Positions 26,060-38,020 of a stretch of DNA of 64,000 nucleotides are shown here, piece after piece; positions within the stretch are counted from its first letter, which is position 1; each line of letters begins with the position of its first letter. A program made the translations under genes and the position numbers. The notes beneath the pieces are model-generated. The model ran no database searches. It had not been told where the DNA came from and saw only the letters and a list, made by a program, of their open reading frames with translations. This stretch comes from a virus. The DNA lies in the IMG/VR virus record IMGVR_UViG_3300036985_002246, positions 135,476 through 199,475 of that record. One strand, given 5' to 3'.

Positions 26060-26098
26060 CACCTATGAAGCGATTGAGCGCCACCTCTTTTCACGTTT
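26060..26098 (-). promoter_or_regulatory. Bipartite promoter-like motif CGTG-N19-CGCTT-N4-GGTG, copy 1
   Basis: Reverse complement AAACGTGAAAAG...ATCGCTTCATAGGTG. Confidence 0.75.
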
Positions 26099-26516: not shown

Positions 26517-26843
26517 ATGAAGCTCACCGAGTACGTCGTCTTCGTGTCCTGGTTCGACGAGCTTGCTACGCTCGTCCTGGACGCCTCCTCACCTGAGGAG
26601 GCTGTTGCTATGGCGAAGGACGCCATGGAGAAGCGCGTCCGGGACAAGGGCACCGAGTGCAAGTGGTCCGAAGCAGACACTGAGGAGCGTGTCGCCCGGT
26701 ACAGGAACGGCTACGAGTACAGGGCGAGCACGACGGCGAAGATCCTCGCAAACAGCAGCAAGGCCCCCGTCGAACGGAAGCGCCTGCTGGAGACGCTCAA
26801 GTCCTGGCGCGAGCCACGGCTCCCCACGGGCTGCCCGTATTGA
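26517..26843 (+). CDS. Hypothetical protein
   Basis: GAGG SD before ATG 26517. Confidence 0.65.
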   Translation: MKLTEYVVFVSWFDELATLVLDASSPEEAVAMAKDAMEKRVRDKGTECKWSEADTEERVARYRNGYEYRASTTAKILANSSKAPVERKRLLETLKSWREPRLPTGCPY

Positions 26844-26852
26844 AGGAACCCC

Positions 26853-27116
26853 ATGGCCGACAAGAGAACAGTTCCGGCGTTCGCAGTCTTCCTCTCCGGC
26901 ATTTTCATGCACGGCAAGGAAGAGCCCAACTCCAACTTCGGGGCGCTCGGGCCGCTCGCGGTGTTCGCACGCGAGATCGACGCCAAAAACTACGTCAAGT
27001 GTGGCCGGAGGCAGGGGTTCCTTCCCCCAGGTAAGGGGAAGGGTCTCCCGAAGGTCACAATCGTTCAGGTCGAGATCGCAGTCCCGGAGGCAGCGTTCTC
27101 CCCTGAGTGGTTGTGA
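26853..27116 (+). CDS. Hypothetical protein
   Basis: AAGGA SD; 87 aa. Confidence 0.6.
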   Translation: MADKRTVPAFAVFLSGIFMHGKEEPNSNFGALGPLAVFAREIDAKNYVKCGRRQGFLPPGKGKGLPKVTIVQVEIAVPEAAFSPEWL

Positions 27117-27148
27117 CCTGCTTGATCCGCCTATCGGCCTGCTCCCGT

Positions 27149-27421
27149 ATGACTTCCCTCAAGCTCGCTCTCCTTCTCGCTCTCTCAATCACAGTTCTCG
27201 GCTGCGACTCCACGCCCGCCCCCACGCCCGTGGACGCAGCCGTGGTGGTGGACGCTGGCGACCTCTCCGACGCAGCCGACGTTGGTGTTGCTGACGACGC
27301 AGCGGCTGACGACTCTGGCACCGTCGAGGACGCAGGCACCGTCGAGGACGCTGCGGTCGCGGACGACGCAGGGTCAGTCGAGGACGCTGGCGAGATCGAC
27401 GCGGCGACCGACGCAGGTTGA
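27149..27421 (+). CDS. Small acidic lipoprotein with DAG repeats
   Basis: Signal peptide ending VLGC; repeated xxEDAG units. Confidence 0.75.
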   Translation: MTSLKLALLLALSITVLGCDSTPAPTPVDAAVVVDAGDLSDAADVGVADDAAADDSGTVEDAGTVEDAAVADDAGSVEDAGEIDAATDAG

Positions 27422-27429
27422 CCTGCTGG

Positions 27430-27468
27430 AATCGTGAAAAGGTCGTTCTCCCACCCGCTTCTAGGGTG
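27430..27468 (+). promoter_or_regulatory. Bipartite promoter-like motif, copy 3
   Basis: AATCGTGAAAAGG...CCCGCTTCTAGGGTG. Confidence 0.75.
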
Positions 27469-27917
27469 TGAAGAGCCTCGTCATTCTCGTCGGTGCTTCT
27501 GGCTCTGGGAAGTCCTCCTGGTGCCGTGGTCACCCAGGACCGGCTGTGGTCTGCTCGGCAGACGACGGGCTCATTGACCCGGACGGCGTGTACAGGTACG
27601 CCCCTGAGAAGCTCGGGGCAGCACACTCGGCCTGCATGGAGAAGGCGCGTGGCGCAATGGTGAGGGGTGTGTCCCTCGTCGTGATCGACAACACGAACAC
27701 GCGCATTTCCGAGATCGGGCGCTACCTCAATCTCGGGGACCAGTTCGAGTACAGCCCTCAGATCTTCGTGTTCGACTCGGAGCGCAACCCGGAGGTCCTT
27801 GCTGCCAGGAATCAGCACGGGATCCCCGCCTTTGCGATCCGGAAGCAGCTTGATCGGATCGGCTACACGCTGGACAACTGGCCTGAGTCGTTCCCGCTGT
27901 TTCGACGAATCGTGTAA
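27468..27917 (+). CDS. AAA_33-type P-loop kinase (polynucleotide-kinase-like)
   Basis: Walker A GASGSGKS, VVIDNTN, RNxH lid. Confidence 0.85.
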   Translation: MKSLVILVGASGSGKSSWCRGHPGPAVVCSADDGLIDPDGVYRYAPEKLGAAHSACMEKARGAMVRGVSLVVIDNTNTRISEIGRYLNLGDQFEYSPQIFVFDSERNPEVLAARNQHGIPAFAIRKQLDRIGYTLDNWPESFPLFRRIV

Positions 27918-27946
27918 AAGGGTCTCCCCCGCCCGCTTGTAGGGTG
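27908..27946 (+). promoter_or_regulatory. Bipartite promoter-like motif, copy 4
   Basis: AATCGTGTAAAAGG...CCCGCTTGTAGGGTG, overlapping the kinase stop. Confidence 0.75.
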
Positions 27947-27958
27947 GAGGACCCGTCC

Positions 27959-28768
27959 ATGCGCTACAGATACATGATCGTCTCGGCCCTACTCCTGTGG
28001 GCCACCCCCCTGCAAGCACAGGCTCCGACGCCTCTCGAAGAGGCTCGTGCTCTCTTTGCTAGGGGCGACACGGCGTTCAACGAAGCTCGGTGGATCGATT
28101 GCGCCCACCTGTTCGAGCGGAGCTTCACGATCGCTTTCCGCCCCGAGCTTCTCTACAACGTCGGCCTCTGCTACCAGCGGGCGGCGGGTGCTCTGCCGGA
28201 CGAGCAGGCTGCACCGCTCCTGGGCCGGGCGGTGGCTGCCTTCCGGCGCTACCTGCGCGAGGTTCCTGCTGCGACCAACGCGGAGCGGGTCCAGACGGCG
28301 GTGGCCGACATTCAGGCTCGGCTCGACAGCATGGACCCCGCTGTCAGCCCAGTCACGGAGGTCACTGCACCGCCTGTGAGGGAGGTCGCTCCGGTCGTAC
28401 CTGAACCTGACTCGGTGGTTGTGGGGGACCCAATCCCCACGCCAGCGCCCGTGACGGTGGCCCGCAACGACTACACGCTCACGATCGTCACGGGGGCGTT
28501 GACCCTCGTCTCGACGGCACTCGCAATCGGGCTTGGACTCCACGCGCAGTCGCTCTACTCGGACCTCTCCTCGACGTGCGGTCAGACCCCGGCAGGTTGC
28601 AACGAAGCTCGGATCTCGGAGGTAGGCTCGTACTCGCTCGCCACGAACCTCCTGTGGGTCGTCTCTGGTCTTGCCCTTGTCGGAACTTCAATCAGCTTCG
28701 CAATCGAGTTCACAGCGACAGACACGCGACCCTCCTTGGTCGCCCTCACGGTGGGAAGGACCTTCTGA
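27959..28768 (+). CDS. Exported TPR protein with C-terminal membrane helices (myxobacterial-type)
   Basis: Signal peptide; TPR EARALFARG...PELLYNVGLCY; two TM helices with a CxxxxxxC loop. Confidence 0.8.
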   Translation: MRYRYMIVSALLLWATPLQAQAPTPLEEARALFARGDTAFNEARWIDCAHLFERSFTIAFRPELLYNVGLCYQRAAGALPDEQAAPLLGRAVAAFRRYLREVPAATNAERVQTAVADIQARLDSMDPAVSPVTEVTAPPVREVAPVVPEPDSVVVGDPIPTPAPVTVARNDYTLTIVTGALTLVSTALAIGLGLHAQSLYSDLSSTCGQTPAGCNEARISEVGSYSLATNLLWVVSGLALVGTSISFAIEFTATDTRPSLVALTVGRTF

Positions 28769-29295
28769 TGCGCTACCTACTGACGACGGTCCTGATCCTC
28801 ACGTCCGGGTGTGCCTTCGACGTTGCAGGGCTTCATGGAACGGGAGTGCTCGACGACGCTGGCCCAATGACGGGCGATACTGGTCCTGAAGTGGACGCAG
28901 GCTCCGAAGTGGACGCAGGTCCAACGCTCGTGGACTCCGGTTCCGAAACCGACGCAGGACTGGACTCTGGATCTGACGTGGACTCCGGCTCAACTGAGGA
29001 CGGGGGTTCAACCGGGCCGACTTGCTGCCTGCCAGAGCGTGTCCTGCCCTCACCTGTACCCTGTCACCTGTTCACGGACGGCACGTCTGACTGCTGCGAC
29101 GGGCTCCTGTGCTACGGCAGCGGTGGGTGCGTGCTGCCCACTGGTGGTGGTGGACGGCTTGGCTCCCTATGTCTTGACGGAGGCGACGGTCCCGACGGCG
29201 GGCGTCTGCTGCTCTGTGTCACGGCGACCACTTGCAACATGGACACTGGAATGTGCGTCGTGGACCCCACGCACGTCACCCTGCTTCAGTGCTAG
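28768..29295 (+). CDS. Lipoprotein with DAG/DSG repeats and Cys-rich C-terminus
   Basis: Lipobox LTSGC; TGATG overlap; Cys-rich knot-like tail. Confidence 0.75.
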   Translation: MRYLLTTVLILTSGCAFDVAGLHGTGVLDDAGPMTGDTGPEVDAGSEVDAGPTLVDSGSETDAGLDSGSDVDSGSTEDGGSTGPTCCLPERVLPSPVPCHLFTDGTSDCCDGLLCYGSGGCVLPTGGGGRLGSLCLDGGDGPDGGRLLLCVTATTCNMDTGMCVVDPTHVTLLQC

Positions 29296-29317
29296 TCGAT
29301 AGGATTGGAGGTGCGCA

Positions 29318-30013
29318 ATGAAGACCAAGTACCCTCGGACCTTCCACCTCCCGTGGAGTGAAGGCGCGACCGACGACGACAAGACGCATGACCAGGAGAC
29401 CGTCGAGCGAATGTTCGGCGGCAAGCAGGTCATTGTCACCGAGAAAATGGACGGGGAGAACACCACGATCTACTCGACGGGGGAGTGCCATGCGCGGAGC
29501 CTCGACTCGGCTGGACACGCCTCGCGGGACTACGTTCGCGGCAAGGCCCGTGAGGTGGGCTGCGCAGGGTTCCCTGAGGGTTGGCGTCTCATGGGGGAGA
29601 ACCTCTACGCCAAGCACTCAATCGAGTACGACCTGCTCCCCGACTACTTCGTGGTCTTCGGGGTTGCAGACGCCTCGAACATGGCTCGGCCCTGGTCTGA
29701 GGTCGAGGAATGGGCAGACCTTCTGGGCCTGCCCGCTGCGCCTGTTCTCTGGCAGGGCACCTGGGACACGAAGAAGGTCATGTCCCTCTACCCGTTCAAG
29801 TCCCTTCTGACCTCCACCGGAACGAGCGAGGGGTACGTCGTGAGGGTCGCGGGCTCATTCCCAATGAGCAGCTTCGACAAGCACGTCGCGAAGTTCGTGC
29901 GGGCCAAGCACGTTCAGACGGACCAACACTGGATGCACCAGCAGGTCACGCCCAACAAGCGCGTCACGACCTCGGCTGAGCAGGTCGTGGAGAGAGTTCT
30001 TGGCTCTCGCTAG
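29318..30013 (+). CDS. ATP-dependent RNA ligase
   Basis: KYPRTFHLPWS, motif I TEKMDG, GENL, FVVF, EGYVV, KFVR; GGAGG SD. Confidence 0.9.
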   Translation: MKTKYPRTFHLPWSEGATDDDKTHDQETVERMFGGKQVIVTEKMDGENTTIYSTGECHARSLDSAGHASRDYVRGKAREVGCAGFPEGWRLMGENLYAKHSIEYDLLPDYFVVFGVADASNMARPWSEVEEWADLLGLPAAPVLWQGTWDTKKVMSLYPFKSLLTSTGTSEGYVVRVAGSFPMSSFDKHVAKFVRAKHVQTDQHWMHQQVTPNKRVTTSAEQVVERVLGSR

Positions 30014-30055
30014 GGCTCCTATCCAGGTCGCAGATTGTGACCTGGATAGGAGCCC
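30013..30055. terminator. 17-bp perfect inverted repeat
   Basis: GGGCTCCTATCCAGGTC / GACCTGGATAGGAGCCC directly after the ligase stop. Confidence 0.7.
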
Positions 30056-30096
30056 CTCTCCACGCTCCCCCTCGCCGCCCCTTCAAGTGAGGGCGC

Positions 30097-30480
30097 ATGA
30101 GCCGCCCCCGATCCCCACCGCCCCCGGCCCCCTACGTGGTCGAGTTCTGGCGGGAGACAGTCAAGCGCGGAGGGGCCTTCGCAACTGTTCCCGGTGGTCG
30201 CGTCCTCCGGCACGGTCGCCGGTACGTCCCGCATTTCCGTGGACCCAGCACTCAGAGCGTAGACCCGAACACGTTCTATATGTCAGAGTTCTCCTCTGCA
30301 CGGGCGCGGCCTTGGCAGAAGTTCCGGGTGTGTTACTACAACCCCCTGACGGGTGCTCGGTCGGCTCTGTCGGCTGAGACGATTGTTGTGATTGGTACTG
30401 CTTCGACAGACCAGATCCGCACCTACGGGGTAGGGCGGAACCCGGCGCACGTCGCTGGCTCGGTGGTGATCAAGCGGTAG
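30097..30480 (+). CDS. Hypothetical basic protein bracketed by two structured elements
   Basis: GAGG SD; 127 aa. Confidence 0.55.
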   Translation: MSRPRSPPPPAPYVVEFWRETVKRGGAFATVPGGRVLRHGRRYVPHFRGPSTQSVDPNTFYMSEFSSARARPWQKFRVCYYNPLTGARSALSAETIVVIGTASTDQIRTYGVGRNPAHVAGSVVIKR

Positions 30481-30588
30481 ATTGGAAGTGGACCCCTGCT
30501 ACGGTGGCTTCAAGGTTGCCCTCTGGCAGCCTCAAAGTGTCCCCCCGGAGACTTCAAAGCCACCCTAGGAGGGGTTCACTTCCCAATC
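30480..30588 (+). ncRNA. Candidate structured RNA (or ssDNA) element: three-way junction
   Basis: ~30-bp closing stem plus two 8-bp hairpins, with CA linkers at all three junction strands. Confidence 0.6.
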
Positions 30589-30643
30589 ATTGGGGGCTAG
30601 GTCAGGTTCTCGGGCCGGTGCGTAAAGATCCCACAGAGGATCA

Positions 30644-33097
30644 ATGCCCACCACCGAAAACACAAAGTTCTCCCTTCGCAACTTCTCCGGCAAGCCCACC
30701 AAGCACTTCCGCGTCGAGCGGGACGACCTGACGGGCCAGGCCCCTGTCGCCAAGAAGACGCCCTCCCACCACATTCTCGTGGTGGACCGGTCGGGCTCCA
30801 TGTACGGCGACCTCCCCGACCTGAAGACCATGGTCGAGAAGCTCCTGACGCTCGGCGAGTTCGACGACCCGACGCTCCGGGTCAGCCTCGTCAGCTACTC
30901 GTCCCAGGGTGACGTGAAGCTCCACTTCAGCCGCGTCACCGTCGCCGACGTGATGAAAGCGTCGAGCCCGTACCTCAAGGAGATCCGTGCGATCCGTGCG
31001 ACCGCCATGACCTGTATCTCCCAGGGGCTCGTCATGGCCGAGACGGTGATCGACGACAAGGAGACGACCTGCGTCACCCTCCACACGGACGGCTTCGCGA
31101 ACGACGCCTCCCCGTCGGCAGAGGCCCGCACGATCGCTGCGACCGTCGAGAAGCTCAAGAAGCACCCCAACCTCTTCGTCAACACGATCGCCTACCGCGA
31201 CTGGTGCGACTTCAATCTGCTCTCCTCGATCAGCAACGCGCTCTCCGGCGCGTGTATCCAGGCCAAGAGTATCAAGCAGGTCTACGAGGCGCTCTACAAC
31301 GCGACGGCGCTGCTCGCGGGCTCCATGGCCCCGGCGATCGAGGCGTCGGTCGGCAACGCCGACTATATTGCCTTCGTCTCCAAGTCCGCCCGCAAGGTGC
31401 TTGGGTCGGAGGACAACCTCGTGGTCCGTGGTCTCGGCTCGACCGACGACCGCTCGGTCTACCGCTACTTCGAGGTCACGGAGGCTGAGTACGCGAAGCT
31501 CTCGTGCCCCGAGACGCTCGGCTCGGCGTCGGCGGACGCAATCGCGACCTACTGCCGGGCGCAGATCAGCGAGGGCCACCACAACACGGCCAAGTACGCG
31601 CTCGTCGCCATGAAGAGCGACACGCTCCTGAACTCGCACTACCGGGCGCTCGTCTCGTCGGACGTGGCGACCTTCGCGGGTGCGGTCGAGGACACGCTGT
31701 TCTCGGCCACGGCGTACCCGCTGGCTGCGGACTACGGCCTCGCGGCGAAGGGTCCGTCGGTTCTGAAGGTGCTCTCGGTCCTCGACCAGCACTCGAAGTC
31801 CCTGAGCGTCAACCTGAAGGTGCTGCTCGCTGGTTACAAGCGGCGCGGGCTCAAGAAGGTGCCTGGGGTTCGCCTCGAAGACGGTACGCTCCAGGTGCCG
31901 ACCGTCGAGTCCCGCTACCGCACGGCGAACGAGGAGTGGGTCACGGTCAACGGGTTCGAGTTGAACCGCAACACGGCCACCGTGAATATGCTCGTCTCGC
32001 AGCCGATCGACCTCTTCCCGCACGGCGGGAACGCTCGGATCGCCTCCGTCTCCGGCGTGGGTCTGGACGGCCTCAAGTCGTTCAACAACTACACGCTCGT
32101 GAGCGACGGCTCGCTGAACGTGGGGCAGATCATGCTCAAGACCTCGGACAAGCGGTGCTTCCGCGAACTGAAGGACCTGGGCGTCGTCACGGGTGAGTAC
32201 GCTCCGGGCGTGGTCTTCGCGATCGACTTCTCGAACCTCCCGCTCGTGGACTTCGAGGCGAGCTTCGACACGGTGGCCCCGGACGAGGTTCGTGACCTCG
32301 CGAAGCTCACGGTCCTCTCGAAGATCCTCTCTGGCATGACCAAGGGGGAATCGACGGCCATGACTTCGGAGCAGATCGCCGAACTCAAGAAGCACTACCT
32401 GACCCCGGCGCTCTACTTCTCGCCCCCGACGACCGGAGAGCACGCCAATCTCCAGGACGCAATCGCCCAGGGCAAGATCGACACGCGGCTCTCGTACAAG
32501 ATCGACGTGGGTATCCCGGCGCTGACCTCGGTGTCGAAGCTGAAGTCGGGCAACGAGTACCTCCAGCGTCGGTTCACGTCGTCGTTCCACGGCAAGCCGG
32601 TCGAGAAGTCGAACCTCCAGGAGATCCTCCTCCCCGGCACGACCTGGGAGGTGAAGAAGCTCACCGCCCGCACCCAACTCGACGAGGTGGACGCCCTCTC
32701 GTTCCCAATCTACGAGGGTGTCCTCGGGACCGGGGCGACCGCCGAAGTCGAGCGCGTCCTCAAGCTCGCCGGACACGAGGACCCCAAGGGCTTCCTCAAG
32801 AGCCTCTCGGGTGACCACGAGGCTGCGGTCGCCTCGGTCACGGACGCGCTGCGGCTCGTGGACGGCATGATCGAGTCGTTCTACGACCGGATCCGCCCCC
32901 TCGCCTTCTACATTGGGGCAACCGGGCTGGTCCCGGATTCGCTCAATGCGAAGGCGTCCGCTGCCGAAGCGTTCGCGACGCAGTTTCCGGAGGCCAAGCT
33001 CTCGAAGGCGGAGAAGGAGGACGGCACCTTCTTCACGCTCCCGAACGGGCTCGTGGTGACGGTGTTCGTGAAGGGCGAGTACTTCACGGTCTCCTGA
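30644..33097 (+). CDS. vWA-domain protein with a large C-terminal region of unknown function
   Basis: MIDAS motif VVDRSGSM and LHTDG; GAGGA SD; 817 aa. Confidence 0.88.
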   Translation: MPTTENTKFSLRNFSGKPTKHFRVERDDLTGQAPVAKKTPSHHILVVDRSGSMYGDLPDLKTMVEKLLTLGEFDDPTLRVSLVSYSSQGDVKLHFSRVTVADVMKASSPYLKEIRAIRATAMTCISQGLVMAETVIDDKETTCVTLHTDGFANDASPSAEARTIAATVEKLKKHPNLFVNTIAYRDWCDFNLLSSISNALSGACIQAKSIKQVYEALYNATALLAGSMAPAIEASVGNADYIAFVSKSARKVLGSEDNLVVRGLGSTDDRSVYRYFEVTEAEYAKLSCPETLGSASADAIATYCRAQISEGHHNTAKYALVAMKSDTLLNSHYRALVSSDVATFAGAVEDTLFSATAYPLAADYGLAAKGPSVLKVLSVLDQHSKSLSVNLKVLLAGYKRRGLKKVPGVRLEDGTLQVPTVESRYRTANEEWVTVNGFELNRNTATVNMLVSQPIDLFPHGGNARIASVSGVGLDGLKSFNNYTLVSDGSLNVGQIMLKTSDKRCFRELKDLGVVTGEYAPGVVFAIDFSNLPLVDFEASFDTVAPDEVRDLAKLTVLSKILSGMTKGESTAMTSEQIAELKKHYLTPALYFSPPTTGEHANLQDAIAQGKIDTRLSYKIDVGIPALTSVSKLKSGNEYLQRRFTSSFHGKPVEKSNLQEILLPGTTWEVKKLTARTQLDEVDALSFPIYEGVLGTGATAEVERVLKLAGHEDPKGFLKSLSGDHEAAVASVTDALRLVDGMIESFYDRIRPLAFYIGATGLVPDSLNAKASAAEAFATQFPEAKLSKAEKEDGTFFTLPNGLVVTVFVKGEYFTVS

Positions 33098-33135
33098 ATC
33101 GTGAAGTGTCCGGGTCCCCAATCGCTTCCAGGGTG
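33097..33135 (+). promoter_or_regulatory. Bipartite promoter-like motif, copy 5
   Basis: AATCGTGAAG...ATCGCTTCCAGGGTG, starting at the vWA stop. Confidence 0.7.
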
Positions 33136-33146
33136 AGGACCCAGAC

Positions 33147-33461
33147 ATGACACTGCGAGAGAAGCCAGAAGCAGGCTGGAACCCGCGATTCGTACTGTGG
33201 TGCGAGTCTCGCGGCTTCCAGCCTGATTCGTTTGACCGGGCTGAGGGCGAGGACATGAAGCTCGTCGAGCATGGCGACGGGAAGCAGTATCCGTGGACGC
33301 TCGTGTTCTCCGACTGGATCAAAGCCCAGTGGAAGGAGTGGGCTCACTCGATCGGGTTCAAGGACAGCAACTTCTGGCAAGCTCACCGGCTGGCCCAGGC
33401 TGCTGGTCACGGTCCCGCAGAGTTCGACGCCTGGCTTCGGCTGAAGGTCAAGGGAGCCTGA
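33147..33461 (+). CDS. Trp-rich hypothetical protein
   Basis: GAGGA SD; 104 aa. Confidence 0.7.
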   Translation: MTLREKPEAGWNPRFVLWCESRGFQPDSFDRAEGEDMKLVEHGDGKQYPWTLVFSDWIKAQWKEWAHSIGFKDSNFWQAHRLAQAAGHGPAEFDAWLRLKVKGA

Positions 33462-33464
33462 CCG

Positions 33465-34004
33465 GTGGGCTACGGCAAGCTCAACCAAGCGCAGCGTCGG
33501 GCGGTCACCCCGCACCTCGTCGGAAAGACCGTCCATGACCTCGGGGCGGGGGACTTGGAGTTGGCTCGGGAGTGCCTGTCCCTCGGGGCAGGACACGTCG
33601 TCGCGATCGACAAGGAGAGGAACTTCTCTCTCCCGCGAGCGAAGATCACCAAGCTCCACATGAGCTTTGCCGAGTTCAATGACCCTGCACCGACGGTGAT
33701 CCTCTCCTGGCCTGTGAATCACCCGGCTCACGGACTCCTGCGGCTCGTCAAGGAGGCTGAGACAGTCGTCTACCTCGGGACGAACACTGACGGCATGGCG
33801 TGCGGCACCAAGCCTCTGTGGAAGCACCTCGCCACGAGGAAGGTGCTGGCCCATGTCCCCGTCCGGGAGAACACGTTGATCGTCTACGGCGCGCTCCTGG
33901 GGAAGTCCCGCAAGGTCTTGCCGGAGGAGTACGCGGCTCTGAACACGGACGAGATCTACTCGTTCGACAGCCTGTACGGACCCAATCCGGTTGTCAGGCT
34001 CTAG
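33465..34004 (+). CDS. Class I SAM-dependent methyltransferase-like protein
   Basis: VHDLGAG motif I and acidic AIDKE motif II. Confidence 0.65.
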   Translation: MGYGKLNQAQRRAVTPHLVGKTVHDLGAGDLELARECLSLGAGHVVAIDKERNFSLPRAKITKLHMSFAEFNDPAPTVILSWPVNHPAHGLLRLVKEAETVVYLGTNTDGMACGTKPLWKHLATRKVLAHVPVRENTLIVYGALLGKSRKVLPEEYAALNTDEIYSFDSLYGPNPVVRL

Positions 34005-34016
34005 CCTGCTCCGAGC

Positions 34017-34430
34017 ATGACGTGGGAGTACGCGGCCACAATCGTTCGAGTTCTCGACGGTGACACCGCCGTCTTCAGGCTGGTCAAGACCTTCACCCAG
34101 GAGGTTGACTTCGGCTTCTCCATTCACGACTCCATGGCGCTCACCAAGAGCACGGAGTTGAGCTTCAGGTTCTTCGGGATCAACTGCCCGGAGATCCATA
34201 GTTCAAACGCGGCGCTCAAGGCCCGTGGGCTGAAGGCGAAGGCGGAGGTCGAGCGCCTGTGCTCCCTCGGTCCCCTGCGGCTCGTGAGCTACAAGCCAGA
34301 CAAGTACGGGCGCTGGCTCGCAGACCTCTATGTGACCCCTCCTGGCAAGCCGGAGGTCTGGATCAACAAGGCTCTCCTGGACGGTGGTTTCGCCCTCCCC
34401 TACAACGGCGACGGTGTGAAGCCGGTTTGA
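34017..34430 (+). CDS. Thermonuclease (SNase family)
   Basis: RVLDGDT, RFFGINCPE, DKYGRWLA, INKALL..GFA. Confidence 0.9.
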   Translation: MTWEYAATIVRVLDGDTAVFRLVKTFTQEVDFGFSIHDSMALTKSTELSFRFFGINCPEIHSSNAALKARGLKAKAEVERLCSLGPLRLVSYKPDKYGRWLADLYVTPPGKPEVWINKALLDGGFALPYNGDGVKPV

Positions 34431-34435
34431 CTCCC

Positions 34436-34528
34436 ATGTCAGATCTGTCCGGGACGGAGGTCATATGGGTCTTGGCGCTGATTCTTTTCTGGATCGCCAT
34501 GATCGTTCGTGACGACTGGAAGCGGTAG
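34436..34528 (+). CDS. 30-aa single-TM peptide
   Basis: MSDLSGTEVIWVLALILFWIAMIVRDDWKR. Confidence 0.4.
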   Translation: MSDLSGTEVIWVLALILFWIAMIVRDDWKR

Positions 34529-34576
34529 GCTCTCTGGTAGAGTCCCGAGCCCAGGACCCTCGGGCAGAGGAAGAAC

Positions 34577-34888
34577 ATGACTGACAAGACGATCGAGACG
34601 GCAGAGGCCACCCCGACTGAGATCGCAAAGAAGCTCTCCCCTGAGGAGGTGACGGCGCTGACGCAAATGCACCGTCAGGCGCAGGAGACCGTTCAGCAGA
34701 TCGGGCAGAGCGAGGTCCGCAAGGCTCGCCTTCTCGCGAGCCTCTCGGAGGTCGAGGAGCGCGCTCAGGGGATCATGAACGCGGCGGCGGCTCGGCTCGG
34801 GATTGAGCCTGGGACGCCCTGGCAAATGGCACCGGACGGGACGGTCGTGATCCTACCCCGCCAGCAGCCGCCTGCTCAGACGCACTAG
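34577..34888 (+). CDS. Small coiled-coil protein
   Basis: GAGGA SD; downstream of a GGTAGAGT motif. Confidence 0.7.
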   Translation: MTDKTIETAEATPTEIAKKLSPEEVTALTQMHRQAQETVQQIGQSEVRKARLLASLSEVEERAQGIMNAAAARLGIEPGTPWQMAPDGTVVILPRQQPPAQTH

Positions 34889-34917
34889 GCACGCTATCTT
34901 CCCCAAGAGGGAAGCCA

Positions 34918-36291
34918 ATGGTGTGGACCCCGACGACGTACCCGCTGGCCCCCATGAACGTCATGGTGGTCAGCCCCTTCGAGAAGGGAATGCTGGACAT
35001 TCGCTGGGACGACCCGTCCCTTCTCGGTGGGAATTCTGCGTACAACGTCCTTGGAGTCAACGTGTACCGGTCGGACGCCTCCGACCGTGGGCCGTTCCGC
35101 AGGGTGAACTCGTTCCCGGTCGGTGGGACGTTCTTCCGTGACTACACGGACGTGGCTCTCGTCGCCAACGAGGTCATTCCGTGGGAGACGGGCTGGCAGT
35201 CCCGTGGAGACGCTCCGAACGTCCGACGGTGGACGCTCAGGACGCGGTACCCGCAGTACAAGCCCCGGACGCAGGGGATTGCGGCGAACTCCCAAGAGGA
35301 CGTGATCGTCACGATCAACGGGCTCCCGGCTCGGATTCACGAGGTCTTCGGCCCGTCGAACGAGATCACCCTCGGAGACGCCCCGGACCTCAACCCACTC
35401 AACGACAGGTTCGTGTTCGCGCCCCTACCTACGGGTTCGGCGGACGCGGTGGTAGTCACCTACTACACGCTCAGGAACCTCGTTCAGCCTGGGGTGGACA
35501 AGAAGAGCTTCTACCGGGTGACGACGGTGGCGGAGGACGCGACTCAGCCTGGGGGTCTGATTGAGACTCCGCTGAACGTGACCATGCCCGCGTCGGACCA
35601 GCAGGTCGAGCAACTCGACTACATTTGGCGCGAGGCGATCCGCCGCAACAACTGGATCCTCACCCAGGGCGGCGAGCGCGTGAAGCTCTTCGTTCAGAAG
35701 GTCGCGGGGGTTCCCTGCGAGTGTCGGATTGACGTGGACGGTCGGCAGCGGGCCTACTCGAAGCAGCCCTCGAACCGCTGCAAGATCTGTTACGGGACCG
35801 GGTTCGTCGGCGGTTACGAAGGCCCATACGACATTATCATGGCTCCCGACGACGCGGAGAAGCGCATTTCCCAGACCTCCACAGGTCGCCGGAAGGAGCA
35901 CTCCTACGAGGTCTTCATGACCTTCACGCCGATCGTCTCCCAGCGTGACTTCGTCGTGAAGCAGAGCAACGACCGGTACTCGATCGGTCCTGTCCGTCGT
36001 CCCTCGAACCGGGGGAACGTCATGCAGCAGCACTTCAATCTCGGGTACCTCGACTCGGCGGACATTCGGTACTCGGTGCCGATCGACGGGGCGATTGCGT
36101 CCCCCAATCTCCCGTGGCCTCAGACCCGGTACACCTACAACCCGCCTCGGGAGACCTACGACGCACGGGAGGATCCGCCGTGGCCAGTCACGCCGGACGC
36201 GGCCTTGCCGGAAGCAACCGACAAGGACAACGTCCCCGGCCCTGTTCAGATTCGCTCAAGGACGGGTACCGGGGAAAACATTGACTACTAA
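34918..36291 (+). CDS. Neck / head-closure protein (T4 gp14-like) with FN3/Ig N-terminus and zinc finger
   Basis: GGERVKLF...CECR...CKICYGTGFVGGY...RDFVV...RYSI pattern; position. Confidence 0.6.
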   Translation: MVWTPTTYPLAPMNVMVVSPFEKGMLDIRWDDPSLLGGNSAYNVLGVNVYRSDASDRGPFRRVNSFPVGGTFFRDYTDVALVANEVIPWETGWQSRGDAPNVRRWTLRTRYPQYKPRTQGIAANSQEDVIVTINGLPARIHEVFGPSNEITLGDAPDLNPLNDRFVFAPLPTGSADAVVVTYYTLRNLVQPGVDKKSFYRVTTVAEDATQPGGLIETPLNVTMPASDQQVEQLDYIWREAIRRNNWILTQGGERVKLFVQKVAGVPCECRIDVDGRQRAYSKQPSNRCKICYGTGFVGGYEGPYDIIMAPDDAEKRISQTSTGRRKEHSYEVFMTFTPIVSQRDFVVKQSNDRYSIGPVRRPSNRGNVMQQHFNLGYLDSADIRYSVPIDGAIASPNLPWPQTRYTYNPPRETYDAREDPPWPVTPDAALPEATDKDNVPGPVQIRSRTGTGENIDY

Positions 36292-36339
36292 CAGGAACCG
36301 GAGAGAATCACAATAGGGGCTCTATCGCCGCCGCTAGGT

Positions 36340-37338
36340 GTGAACGTCTGCGGCGTGTGTTTTCTCCCCGTTGTCTCTCACAACGCCTACGCTCAGCACC
36401 TTCGTGGAAGGTTGGACGCCCGCCACCAGGAGGCTCTCGTCAGCTATGAGGCGTGGCTGGCAGTTCACCTCACGACGTACAGGTGCTCGAAGTGCAGGTG
36501 TTTGTACCGGCGGGAGCCTCTCACTCACAGGAGCGGGCCAGGTCTGTGTACCTCGTGCCGACACCTCAAGGAGACCCTGCCGACCAGAACCTACGAGTCC
36601 TTGGTGAATCGTAAGGACGAGGCCCCTGTCGGTTGGGATTCTCTGGTGGTGCAACAGGACGTGTGGACCCCAAACGAGGCTCTCTGCGAAGAGGTGCTCA
36701 GAGTCACCCAGGGCCAAGAGAGGGTCCGTGACGCCATGGCTAGGTTGGGCCTCAGCTTCAGGCTATTCAAGGCTGTGGGTGTTCATGTCCTTGGGGCAGA
36801 CGCCTACAAGGAATGGGCTTCAGCTAGAGAGTGGAGACGGTCGTCCAAGGTCGGGAAAGCCCATGCTGACCGTTACCGGGCGATGAGCCCTGACGAGAAG
36901 GCAGCCGTGCTCCAGAAGCGGTTCCCACGGGTGAGGTCGAAGATTGAGATCATGATGACCGACGTTCTCGTGGCACTTGGTGAGACTGACTTCGTCACGA
37001 ACCACTGGCAAGCTTTTGAGATCTTCGGTCGTGTTTCTCCGCGAGAGGCTGACATCAAGCTGACCCTCGGGGCCGACCGCAAGCTGGTTCTGCTGTGTGA
37101 CGGTGAGGCTTTCCACGGTCCAGGGTGCATTTTCGGCAACCCCGCCGACCGCATTCGCGACGACATGGCGACTACTCACGCCTACTTTGACGCCGGATAC
37201 TCCGTGGTGCGGTACTCAGAGACTGAGATCAAGTCAGGGGTGGCTGGTGGTCACTTGTCCATGATCCTGACGAGATTGAGAGCAGAGGGTGGGCGAATCT
37301 TCCGCCTATGGTATCCCGCACTTGAGGAATGGGTCTGA
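36340..37338 (+). CDS. Free-standing endonuclease, DUF559/Vsr-like C-terminus
   Basis: Zn-finger N-terminus; EADIKL...LLCDGEAFHG...VVRYSETEI; atypical codon usage. Confidence 0.75.
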   Translation: MNVCGVCFLPVVSHNAYAQHLRGRLDARHQEALVSYEAWLAVHLTTYRCSKCRCLYRREPLTHRSGPGLCTSCRHLKETLPTRTYESLVNRKDEAPVGWDSLVVQQDVWTPNEALCEEVLRVTQGQERVRDAMARLGLSFRLFKAVGVHVLGADAYKEWASAREWRRSSKVGKAHADRYRAMSPDEKAAVLQKRFPRVRSKIEIMMTDVLVALGETDFVTNHWQAFEIFGRVSPREADIKLTLGADRKLVLLCDGEAFHGPGCIFGNPADRIRDDMATTHAYFDAGYSVVRYSETEIKSGVAGGHLSMILTRLRAEGGRIFRLWYPALEEWV

Positions 37339-37354
37339 AGGAGGGCACCCCAGC

Positions 37355-38020
37355 ATGACCAAGAAGAGCACACCCTCCACTCCCCCACCGGCAGACTCGT
37401 CGATCGTGCCTGACCCCACAGACAGCCACCCGATCGTTCGGGTGAGCAAGTGGGTTGGTATCTTCGTCGGGATCGGCGGGGGCCTGGCCTTGCTGGTGAC
37501 GGGGATCTGGAAGGTCGGCGACCTCCTCAACGACCTGGAGCAGGTCCAGACCGACGTGGCTGCCCTCCGGTCCTCGGTGACTGAGGCTTCAGCGGAAGCC
37601 CGCCGTCGCAGCGACATTCAGGAGGAGATCCTCCTCAACCTACGCATTGCGGTGGCCTCGCTTCAGGCCAGGTCAGGCACGCCACGAGGCGGGAGCGCCC
37701 CGTCTTCCACACCCCCTGTCACTCGTCCGCGTGTGCCCGTAGCCCGTGTTCGGCCCCACCCAGTGGCAGATACCCCCCCGAGCCCTGAGGTGGCTGCGCT
37801 GGTGCTGAGCCTGCCACCGCTTCCTATGGCCCCACCCGACCCGCCTGTGGCCCCGCCTCAGCCGCTTGTCGCAGTGGCCCCACCCCACGTCGTGTCCCTG
37901 GCCGAGTTGCCCACGATTGTGAGGGAGGGGAGGAGCCTGGACGCCACCGCCTACGCCCGCGAGGTGGAGACGACTGACGTGGCGCTGGAGCGGGCGAACA
38001 TTCTCCTCGACGCACTATGA
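37355..38020 (+). CDS. Membrane-anchored coiled-coil protein with Pro-rich linker
   Basis: One TM helix, heptads, Pro-rich tail; GGAGG SD. Confidence 0.65.
   Translation: MTKKSTPSTPPPADSSIVPDPTDSHPIVRVSKWVGIFVGIGGGLALLVTGIWKVGDLLNDLEQVQTDVAALRSSVTEASAEARRRSDIQEEILLNLRIAVASLQARSGTPRGGSAPSSTPPVTRPRVPVARVRPHPVADTPPSPEVAALVLSLPPLPMAPPDPPVAPPQPLVAVAPPHVVSLAELPTIVREGRSLDATAYAREVETTDVALERANILLDAL

Follow-up and report, generated by a model that had tools for sequence, protein, structure and literature searches.

A three-way junction on the sense strand behind a small basic phage gene and its relatives

Upstream of a gene for an 817-aa vWA protein, the phage DNA analysed here contains a 109-nt stretch that can be folded as a nearly symmetric Y, and the locus raises the question of which neighbouring gene this structure belongs with, whether it acts as RNA or as DNA, and what it might do. 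The window, a stretch of 64,000 nucleotides, comprises bases 135476-199475 of a 199,475-bp IMG/VR record with a GC content of about 63%, estimated by CheckV to be 45% complete. A sequence-only reading of the locus had placed the structure between an RNA ligase and a vWA gene and, by analogy with Ro60 and Y RNAs, had proposed a ribonucleoprotein module with the ligase, a kinase and the vWA protein, or a decoy for RNA-sensing defences. The order in this phage is kinase, ligase, element and vWA gene, but the element does not come directly after the ligase gene, as a small gene, ORF127, intervenes. The features of the locus needed below are as follows.

30013-30055 (+): left hairpin of 20 bp with one G-U pair and a 3-nt loop, at the left border of the cassette, without a T tract
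30015-30576 (+): cassette holding the left hairpin, ORF127 and most of the junction, delimited by blastn breakpoints 30014/30577 against L002 2598/2927
30097-30480 (+): ORF127, 127 aa, pI 11.3, net charge +13, with GAGGG 3 nt before the ATG
30480-30588 (+): the element, a three-way junction with P1 (30480-30510/30557-30588), P2 (30513-30532), P3 (30535-30554) and three CA linkers, assessed by fold, z-score, covariance model and covariation
30580-30596 (+): small hairpin UUCCCAA-UCA-UUGGGGG, in the 88% relatives (L002:2930-2946) CUCUCAA-UCU-UUGAGAG, from the alignment and read directly from the sequence
30620-30627 (+): promoter-like motif GCGTAAAG, situated past the element and 16 nt upstream of the vWA start codon

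Fold of the element and its relation to the vWA gene

The Y-shaped junction described earlier was reproduced exactly by RNAfold on the plus strand, with a free energy of -67.2 kcal/mol and a z-score of -8.10, and none of 200 shuffled sequences equalled it. The 29 pairs of P1 are interrupted by a bulged C (30582) and by two 1x1 mismatches, the linkers are CA at 30511, 30533 and 30555, and the G-T pairs 30491/30576 and 30516/30529 are where they had been placed. The two inner hairpins had both been read as 8 bp long; this is correct for P2, which is a clean 8-bp helix closed by the loop CUCU, but P3, with the loop CCCC, consists of 4+3 pairs on the two sides of a G/G mismatch. The three junction strands read CUU-CA-AGG, CCU-CA-AAG and CUU-CA-AAG, giving in the window a motif CUUCAARG that recurs with a period of 22 nt. 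The minus strand folds less well (-62.4 vs -67.2 kcal/mol with RNA parameters), and the same strand order is obtained with DNA parameters (-35.5 on the plus strand vs -31.1 on the minus strand). When windows of 110 nt were folded across all 199 kb of the record (n=9063, mean -39.2, sd 6.5), the top score was -67.8, so that the element ranks about second in the record, despite a GC content below the record average. It begins on the last base (G) of the ORF127 stop codon TAG, and its ends read GATTGG...CCAATC.

The view that this is neither a tRNA nor an ordinary terminator was borne out. Rfam 15 returned only noise, both for the entire window at gathering score and for 30300-30800 with E values of up to 10 allowed; ARAGORN found no tRNA or tmRNA within the window, and the Rfam tRNA and Y RNA models were likewise without a match. 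An intrinsic terminator was rejected because the U tract is missing, and a terminator-like site is absent from 29900-30750. By blastn and by R1, a covariance model built from the window's copy alone, the element is single-copy in the 199-kb record, with no target duplication; a dispersed repeat of the PeSL, REP or MITE type was rejected on this ground and because none was present in the relatives' contigs or in LR745208.1. TRF detected no tandem array, and no promoter motif of its own was found. Exact and degenerate junction patterns, searched in viral, metagenome and genome collections, recovered coding sequence or tandem repeats only.

The partnership with the vWA gene could be examined at homologous loci, and the sequence-only reading had said in advance that absence of the structure there would count against it. 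Homologues of the vWA gene were available from L002 (of which L124 is the same contig), L122, L123 and L126 at 88% identity, from L125 at 73%, from L003 at 66% and from LR745208.1 at 62%. The junction is absent upstream of the vWA gene in all seven of these loci, from four other lineages, and R1 run over them and over the whole contigs of L002, L003 and LR745208.1 gave nothing except one match, in LR745208.1, which is low-complexity coding sequence and hence was rejected as non-homologous. As none of the homologous vWA genes examined is preceded by the structure, the proposed partnership fails. The vWA gene has a promoter-like motif of its own, GCGTAAAG at 30620, beyond the element, and its protein has no TROVE match.

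The likeness to Y RNAs was considered separately. Like YrlA, the element is about 100 nt long and has a long end-paired stem with a bulged C, and the phage encodes a Ro60 orthologue; YrlA and Y RNAs are recognized by the sequence GNCGAAN0-1G, or one similar to GGUCCGA, near the 5' end (PMC4201824). The 5' arm of the element reads GAUUGGAAGUGGACCCC, which does not contain this motif, its loops CUCU and CCCC are not those of T or D arms, the Ro60 gene lies about 80 kb away, and the partner family is a different one. A Ro60/Y-RNA-like repair particle of this RNA with the vWA protein, RNA ligase and kinase, or a decoy for RNA-sensing defences, is thus hardly credible: the gene order in this one phage and the long stem with its bulged C speak for it, whereas the empty vWA loci, the lack of an own promoter motif, the departures from Y RNAs, and the presence elsewhere in this genome of both a genuine Ro60 orthologue and a more convincing candidate for a Y RNA speak against it. 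It is opposed also by the distribution of the junction described next, since the structure follows relatives of ORF127 that have neither vWA nor ligase genes as neighbours.

The junction behind relatives of ORF127

The frame of ORF127 is the clear best of the region by codon usage, and the gene is less adapted than its neighbours, having a GC3 of 0.73 vs 0.84-0.92. In a word-indexed protein search ORF127 matched only itself and thus resembled an ORFan; only an exhaustive HMMER search exposed its family, with 58 relatives of 70-1055 aa, 24 of them at E <= 1e-10, which is a warning as to method. All 58 match through their C-terminal 100 or so residues, and ORF127 aligns to the last domain only of this 59-member family. 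The domain has invariant residues in the family alignment (E16, W18, R19, G25, G40, P45, R48 and R88) and is basic in 59/59 members, with a pI of 9.3-11.8 (median 10.3). In two long members, of 960 and 1055 aa, the N-terminal parts match tail-fibre, minor-tail and virion-structural PHROGs; the core domain is without a family match in Pfam or PHROG. An IS200/IS605-type element was rejected, as ORF127 has no HUH motif and no family match.

DNA could be obtained for 9 of the 59 family loci, the window included, the eight others coming from IMG/VR, JGI, ENA and Logan. In all nine a long stem begins 0-4 nt past the stop codon (offsets 0, 4, 2, 0, 4, 0, 2, 3 and 2), although the stop codon itself differs by locus, being TAA, TAG or TGA. 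Eight of the nine minimum free energy folds consist of a closing stem and two hairpins, with energies of -45 to -71 kcal/mol; the exception is L261, where a stem of 30 bp encloses an irregular interior. The z-scores of the family structures against mononucleotide shuffles are -6.9 to -12.4, and the copies are 84-109 nt long, apart from the L258 fold of 133 nt, in which flanking sequence is included. A further family contig, known by gene calls without DNA, has only 15 nt to the next called gene. R1, searched in 103 kb, finds all nine copies: L257 scores 82.7 bits (E 1e-19), six others 44.9-31.0 bits (E 2e-9 to 1e-5), and L261 17.6 bits (E 0.05), the match in L258 being reported on the opposite strand only.

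Each copy carries one short motif on all three of its junction strands, and the motif differs between copies, examples being CUUCAAAG, CUUUAAAG, CGUAAGG and GCUAAAG. Thus L258 has three CUU(U)AA(A)G (CUUUAAAG), L266 three GUAA and L265 three CUAA(A). Structure and motif are conserved at 40-73% protein identity while the RNA sequence changes. The covariation that had been suggested as a check is present, not among vWA loci but among the copies behind ORF127 relatives. In an alignment of seven sense-strand copies fitted to model R1, with pairwise identities of 34-70%, canonical pairs occupy 263 of 277 pair cells (94.9%) and 34 of 44 pairs are altered on both sides, whereas none of 500 shuffles reaches the observed pairing (shuffle mean 182.6, sd 5.6). 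This covariation indicates that the structure is under selection. It also disposed of 22-bp iteron- or operator-like direct repeats on duplex DNA as an explanation of the window's periodic motif, as the variable triplets are complementary between adjacent units and not within them, and the pairs covary across phages.

The earlier preference for a plus-strand RNA was strengthened by the same loci. G-U oppositions exceed A/C oppositions by 33:2 in the minimum free energy folds and by 24:5 in the model alignment (hand count, binomial p 5e-4), and from this excess the folded strand is the sense strand of the gene. Stop-codon read-through into the structure was rejected, the in-frame extension past the stop codon being short (9-39 codons) and not conserved. 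Together, these results show that the elements form a sense-strand RNA family that is lacking in Rfam 15 and is tied to an upstream gene family; the element in this window belongs with the small basic gene ORF127 upstream, not with the vWA gene downstream, and is thereby reassigned from the vWA and RNA-repair story. A near-threefold RNA with compensatory changes that is tied to one protein domain has no counterpart in Rfam 15, and no description of such a gene-linked junction was found in the literature searched.

The position of the junction immediately behind a gene would also suit a purely cis-acting RNA end, in which the 29-bp stem would be a barrier to 3' exonucleases, an RNase III-type site or a U-tract-independent terminator, and would close the ORF127 message and insulate it from the vWA promoter. 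The element lies at the stop codon and ends 32 nt ahead of the promoter-like motif at 30620, a motif kept in L002, L125, L003 and all lineages whose upstream sequence could be read; in L125 the equivalent place is taken by an ordinary terminator hairpin; and the favoured strand is the sense strand. RNase III substrates are generally duplexes over 20 bp, and P1, with 29 pairs and three irregularities, resembles them in length. As in T7, where the upstream message is left with a protective hairpin at its 3' end by long imperfect intercistronic duplexes without a U tract, the window's duplex stands between two genes; each T7 site, however, is one hairpin containing an internal loop and is associated with no fixed protein family, whereas the conserved structure in the present case is a three-way junction bearing a threefold motif. 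A T tract is absent after all nine copies (at most two T in the next 8 nt), in contrast to the T-rich tails of the phage's ordinary terminators, and a barrier of a general kind could do without the three-way junction and the threefold motif, both of which are conserved. Nor does this explanation account for the constant protein domain upstream, and as a complete description of the element it is possible but on the unlikely side.

Cassette borders and possible roles of the junction

Comparison with the relatives at 88% identity showed that 30015-30576 is replaced there by an unrelated 328-bp segment holding a different open reading frame, ORF103, while the ligase and vWA genes remain syntenic. 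The same breakpoints were found in L123, L124 and L126, and in L122 the right breakpoint only, as that contig stops before the ligase gene. The element is therefore part of a lineage-specific cassette. The left hairpin, which starts on the final base of the ligase stop codon (30005-30100 folds at -54.1 kcal/mol, z -7.3), is absent from L002 and the other 88% relatives, and no similarity to the cassette was found by blastn among deposited phages. Homology to the 88% relatives restarts at 30577, within the 3' arm of P1, and the outer 12 nt of the P1 3' strand are common to these relatives, where they form the 5' half of the small hairpin. Since the 5' half of the small hairpin is the outermost part of the P1 3' strand, the two pairings are mutually exclusive in the window. 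Relative to the 88% relatives the small hairpin shows one compensatory pair (C-G vs U-A), and two U-G pairs are kept on the plus strand.

The segment that fills the ORF127 slot in these relatives (L002:2615-2926, likewise L122, L123 and L126) encodes a 103-aa protein with a proline-rich N-terminus, the C-terminus of which weakly matches the end of a 799-position PHROG profile of unassigned function. By sequence comparison this suggests that the slot gathers stand-alone C-terminal domains. Three other segments of the window are missing from G001, an 88% relative contig (28769-29302, 534 bp; 33173-33452, 280 bp; 36279-37405, 1127 bp), and these three indels have no flanking structures like those of ORF127.

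Structures at cassette borders suggest comparison with two known kinds of element. PeSLs of T4-like phages, which are composite terminator-promoter cassettes, are described as conserved motifs at which homologous exchange takes place inside a single genome (PMC2839356, PMC4122927). The arrangement here resembles them in having a stem-loop that follows a small variable gene, in a plastic part of a T4-like genome, and is followed in turn by a promoter, with indels between close relatives ending at the structures. It differs in that the element is single-copy and has been kept, along with a gene, in different phages; what occurs in many copies in this phage is a separate CGTG..CGCTT promoter-like element.

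The attC sites of integron-type cassettes are the second comparison. Their core sites are RYYYAAC...GTTRRRY. Like the element, they are imperfect palindromes (57-141 nt) that begin immediately behind the coding part of a cassette gene, at its stop codon, with structure kept over sequence and one strand favoured; unlike them, the element has no R or L core sites and no integrase, and its threefold junction is conserved and tied to one protein domain. A DNA-level signal of this sort, a single-strand fold or cruciform marking the 3' border of an exchangeable fibre-tip cassette for a recombinase or for replication-linked template switching, would fit with an indel that starts at one hairpin and ends in the 3' arm of another structure (30576/30577), with the movement of domain and element among gene contexts considered below, and with the strong DNA fold (-35.5); the strand bias is also compatible with it, as G-T is better tolerated than A-C in DNA too. 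However, no recombinase, HUH or integrase gene was found beside any copy in gene tables and Pfam searches, the eight neighbouring ORFs scanned with Pfam in the window (26563-36291) contain no integrase families, there is one copy per genome, and the GATTGG...CCAATC ends are not attC core sites. The spacing of 0-4 nt from the stop codon and the 33:2 G-U bias also suit an expressed strand better, making such a DNA signal quite unlikely.

Movement of the domain was indicated by its closest relative, P0002, a full-length protein of 311 aa (locus L257) that is 73% identical to ORF127 across the domain. Its first 60 residues are shared with another ORF of this phage: residues 7-60 of P0002 have 55% identity to the N-terminus (G000:C1:46221-46382, +) of a 560-aa ORF outside the window, which suggests, on sequence grounds, a common anchor with exchanged C-terminal parts. 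Gene and RNA are both missing from the 88% relatives and both present in L257. Because the N-terminus of P0002 is shared with the 560-aa ORF, the domain and the RNA seem to move together, and they appear to travel as one unit between fibre-like genes. ORF127 as read here stands alone in a plastic part of the genome and lacks an N-terminal portion, and since it is truncated the window's copy could be a relic.

The explanation preferred here combines two parts, a 3'-UTR RNA of the ORF127 message and a threefold junction read by three copies of the basic domain, and is given a probability of about 0.5. For the first part, we infer that the element makes up the 3' untranslated end of the message of ORF127; strand bias and position favour RNA over single-stranded DNA. 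Three basic domains translated from this message would dock on the three equivalent strands or arms of the junction; the ribonucleoprotein so formed in cis could feed back on expression of the gene or aid the joining of three chains. Fibre-type proteins are trimers as a rule, which is the reason for supposing three docked copies, and the assumption of a trimer has as its basis the fibre-like N-terminal parts of the two long members only. Possible binding of the junction RNA by the basic product is the weakest step.

Structural modelling of the domain bears on this step. With the family alignment as input, AF2 predicted a beta-sandwich with a pLDDT of 82.8, whereas ORF127 folded as a lone sequence reached a pLDDT of 33, and the ESM Atlas gave no lead for it. 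Foldseek of the domain model found nothing at E <= 0.001, and VIA-align gave generic beta-sandwich matches only, with Z <= 5.7 (CBM20, fn3, the phage T1 tail tip and Tuc2009 BppU). The predicted generic beta-sandwich is not a known RNA-binding fold, and a basic surface would also suit binding to acidic cell-wall polymers.

Among known systems, ToxI/ToxN offers a likeness to the docking proposal, a short RNA unit repeated about three times assembling with three copies of the protein of an adjacent gene. There, however, the ToxI tandem array precedes the gene of an endoribonuclease toxin, whereas here the junction arms stand behind a beta-sandwich gene. A type III toxin-antitoxin identity was rejected, as the element comes after the gene, TRF found no tandem array, and the protein has no PHROG or Pfam match.

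A stronger form of the docking proposal is rather unlikely but deserves statement: the RNA might be a C3-symmetric, cis-encoded scaffold for a trimeric fibre-tip domain, the basic C-terminal domains docking on the three equivalent junction strands as three chains are completed on one message or on adjacent ones. Such a scaffold could nucleate trimer assembly, gate translation of its own gene, or remain in the virion as a structural RNA, and if real it would represent a new type of protein-RNA module that moves between phages as a unit. More generally, if the domain binds the junction, the two would make up a protein-RNA module complete in itself at the working end of fibre-like proteins of phages, and this would bear on the assembly and regulation of such proteins and on the swapping of host-range modules.

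Other structures and motifs in the phage record

Among deposited phages, a full-length relative of the vWA protein is encoded only at LR745208.1:342541-344979 (62% identity). LR745208.1 is an uncultured phage of 485 kb, and the match suggests that it is a distant relative of the phage studied here; its size agrees with the completeness estimate of 45% for the record.

Outside the window, the record contains 37 tRNA genes, in an array at 78120-86850, and a tmRNA gene (134745-135152). Within the tRNA array lies a 579-aa ORF (G000:C1:84736-86475, +; L127:634-2373) with TROVE and vWA_Ro60 domains, by which it is a Ro60/Rsr orthologue. A second structured region, also outside the window (G000:C1:28772-28925, +; L128:8773-8926), has a closing stem of 28 pairs (GGGUCCAGAAAG.../...CUUUCUGUACCC), from which one C bulges out close to the base, and a multiloop with a perfect T-arm, GCUGG UUCGAUU CCAGC. 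Its minimum free energy is -91.7 (z -7.2), a promoter-like motif CGTGAAAAG..CGCTT lies about 45 nt upstream, and no Rfam match was obtained for it. From these features it looks like a candidate Y RNA of the tRNA-like YrlA type, unrelated to the junction element.

Two short motifs recur before genes of this phage. A promoter-like motif with the layout aATCGTG(T)AAAAG, about 11 nt, CCCnnnCGCTTnnnGGGTG stands directly before genes, its sites being as follows.

26060-26098 (-), 26117, 27430, 27908 and 33097 in the window: aATCGTG(T)AAAAG motif, with some 20 others in the record

The second motif, GCGTAA[AG]G, has 20 copies in the record, 5-57 nt before start codons and also before the tmRNA gene. 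As this motif is so close to start codons, some messages of the phage may be nearly leaderless.
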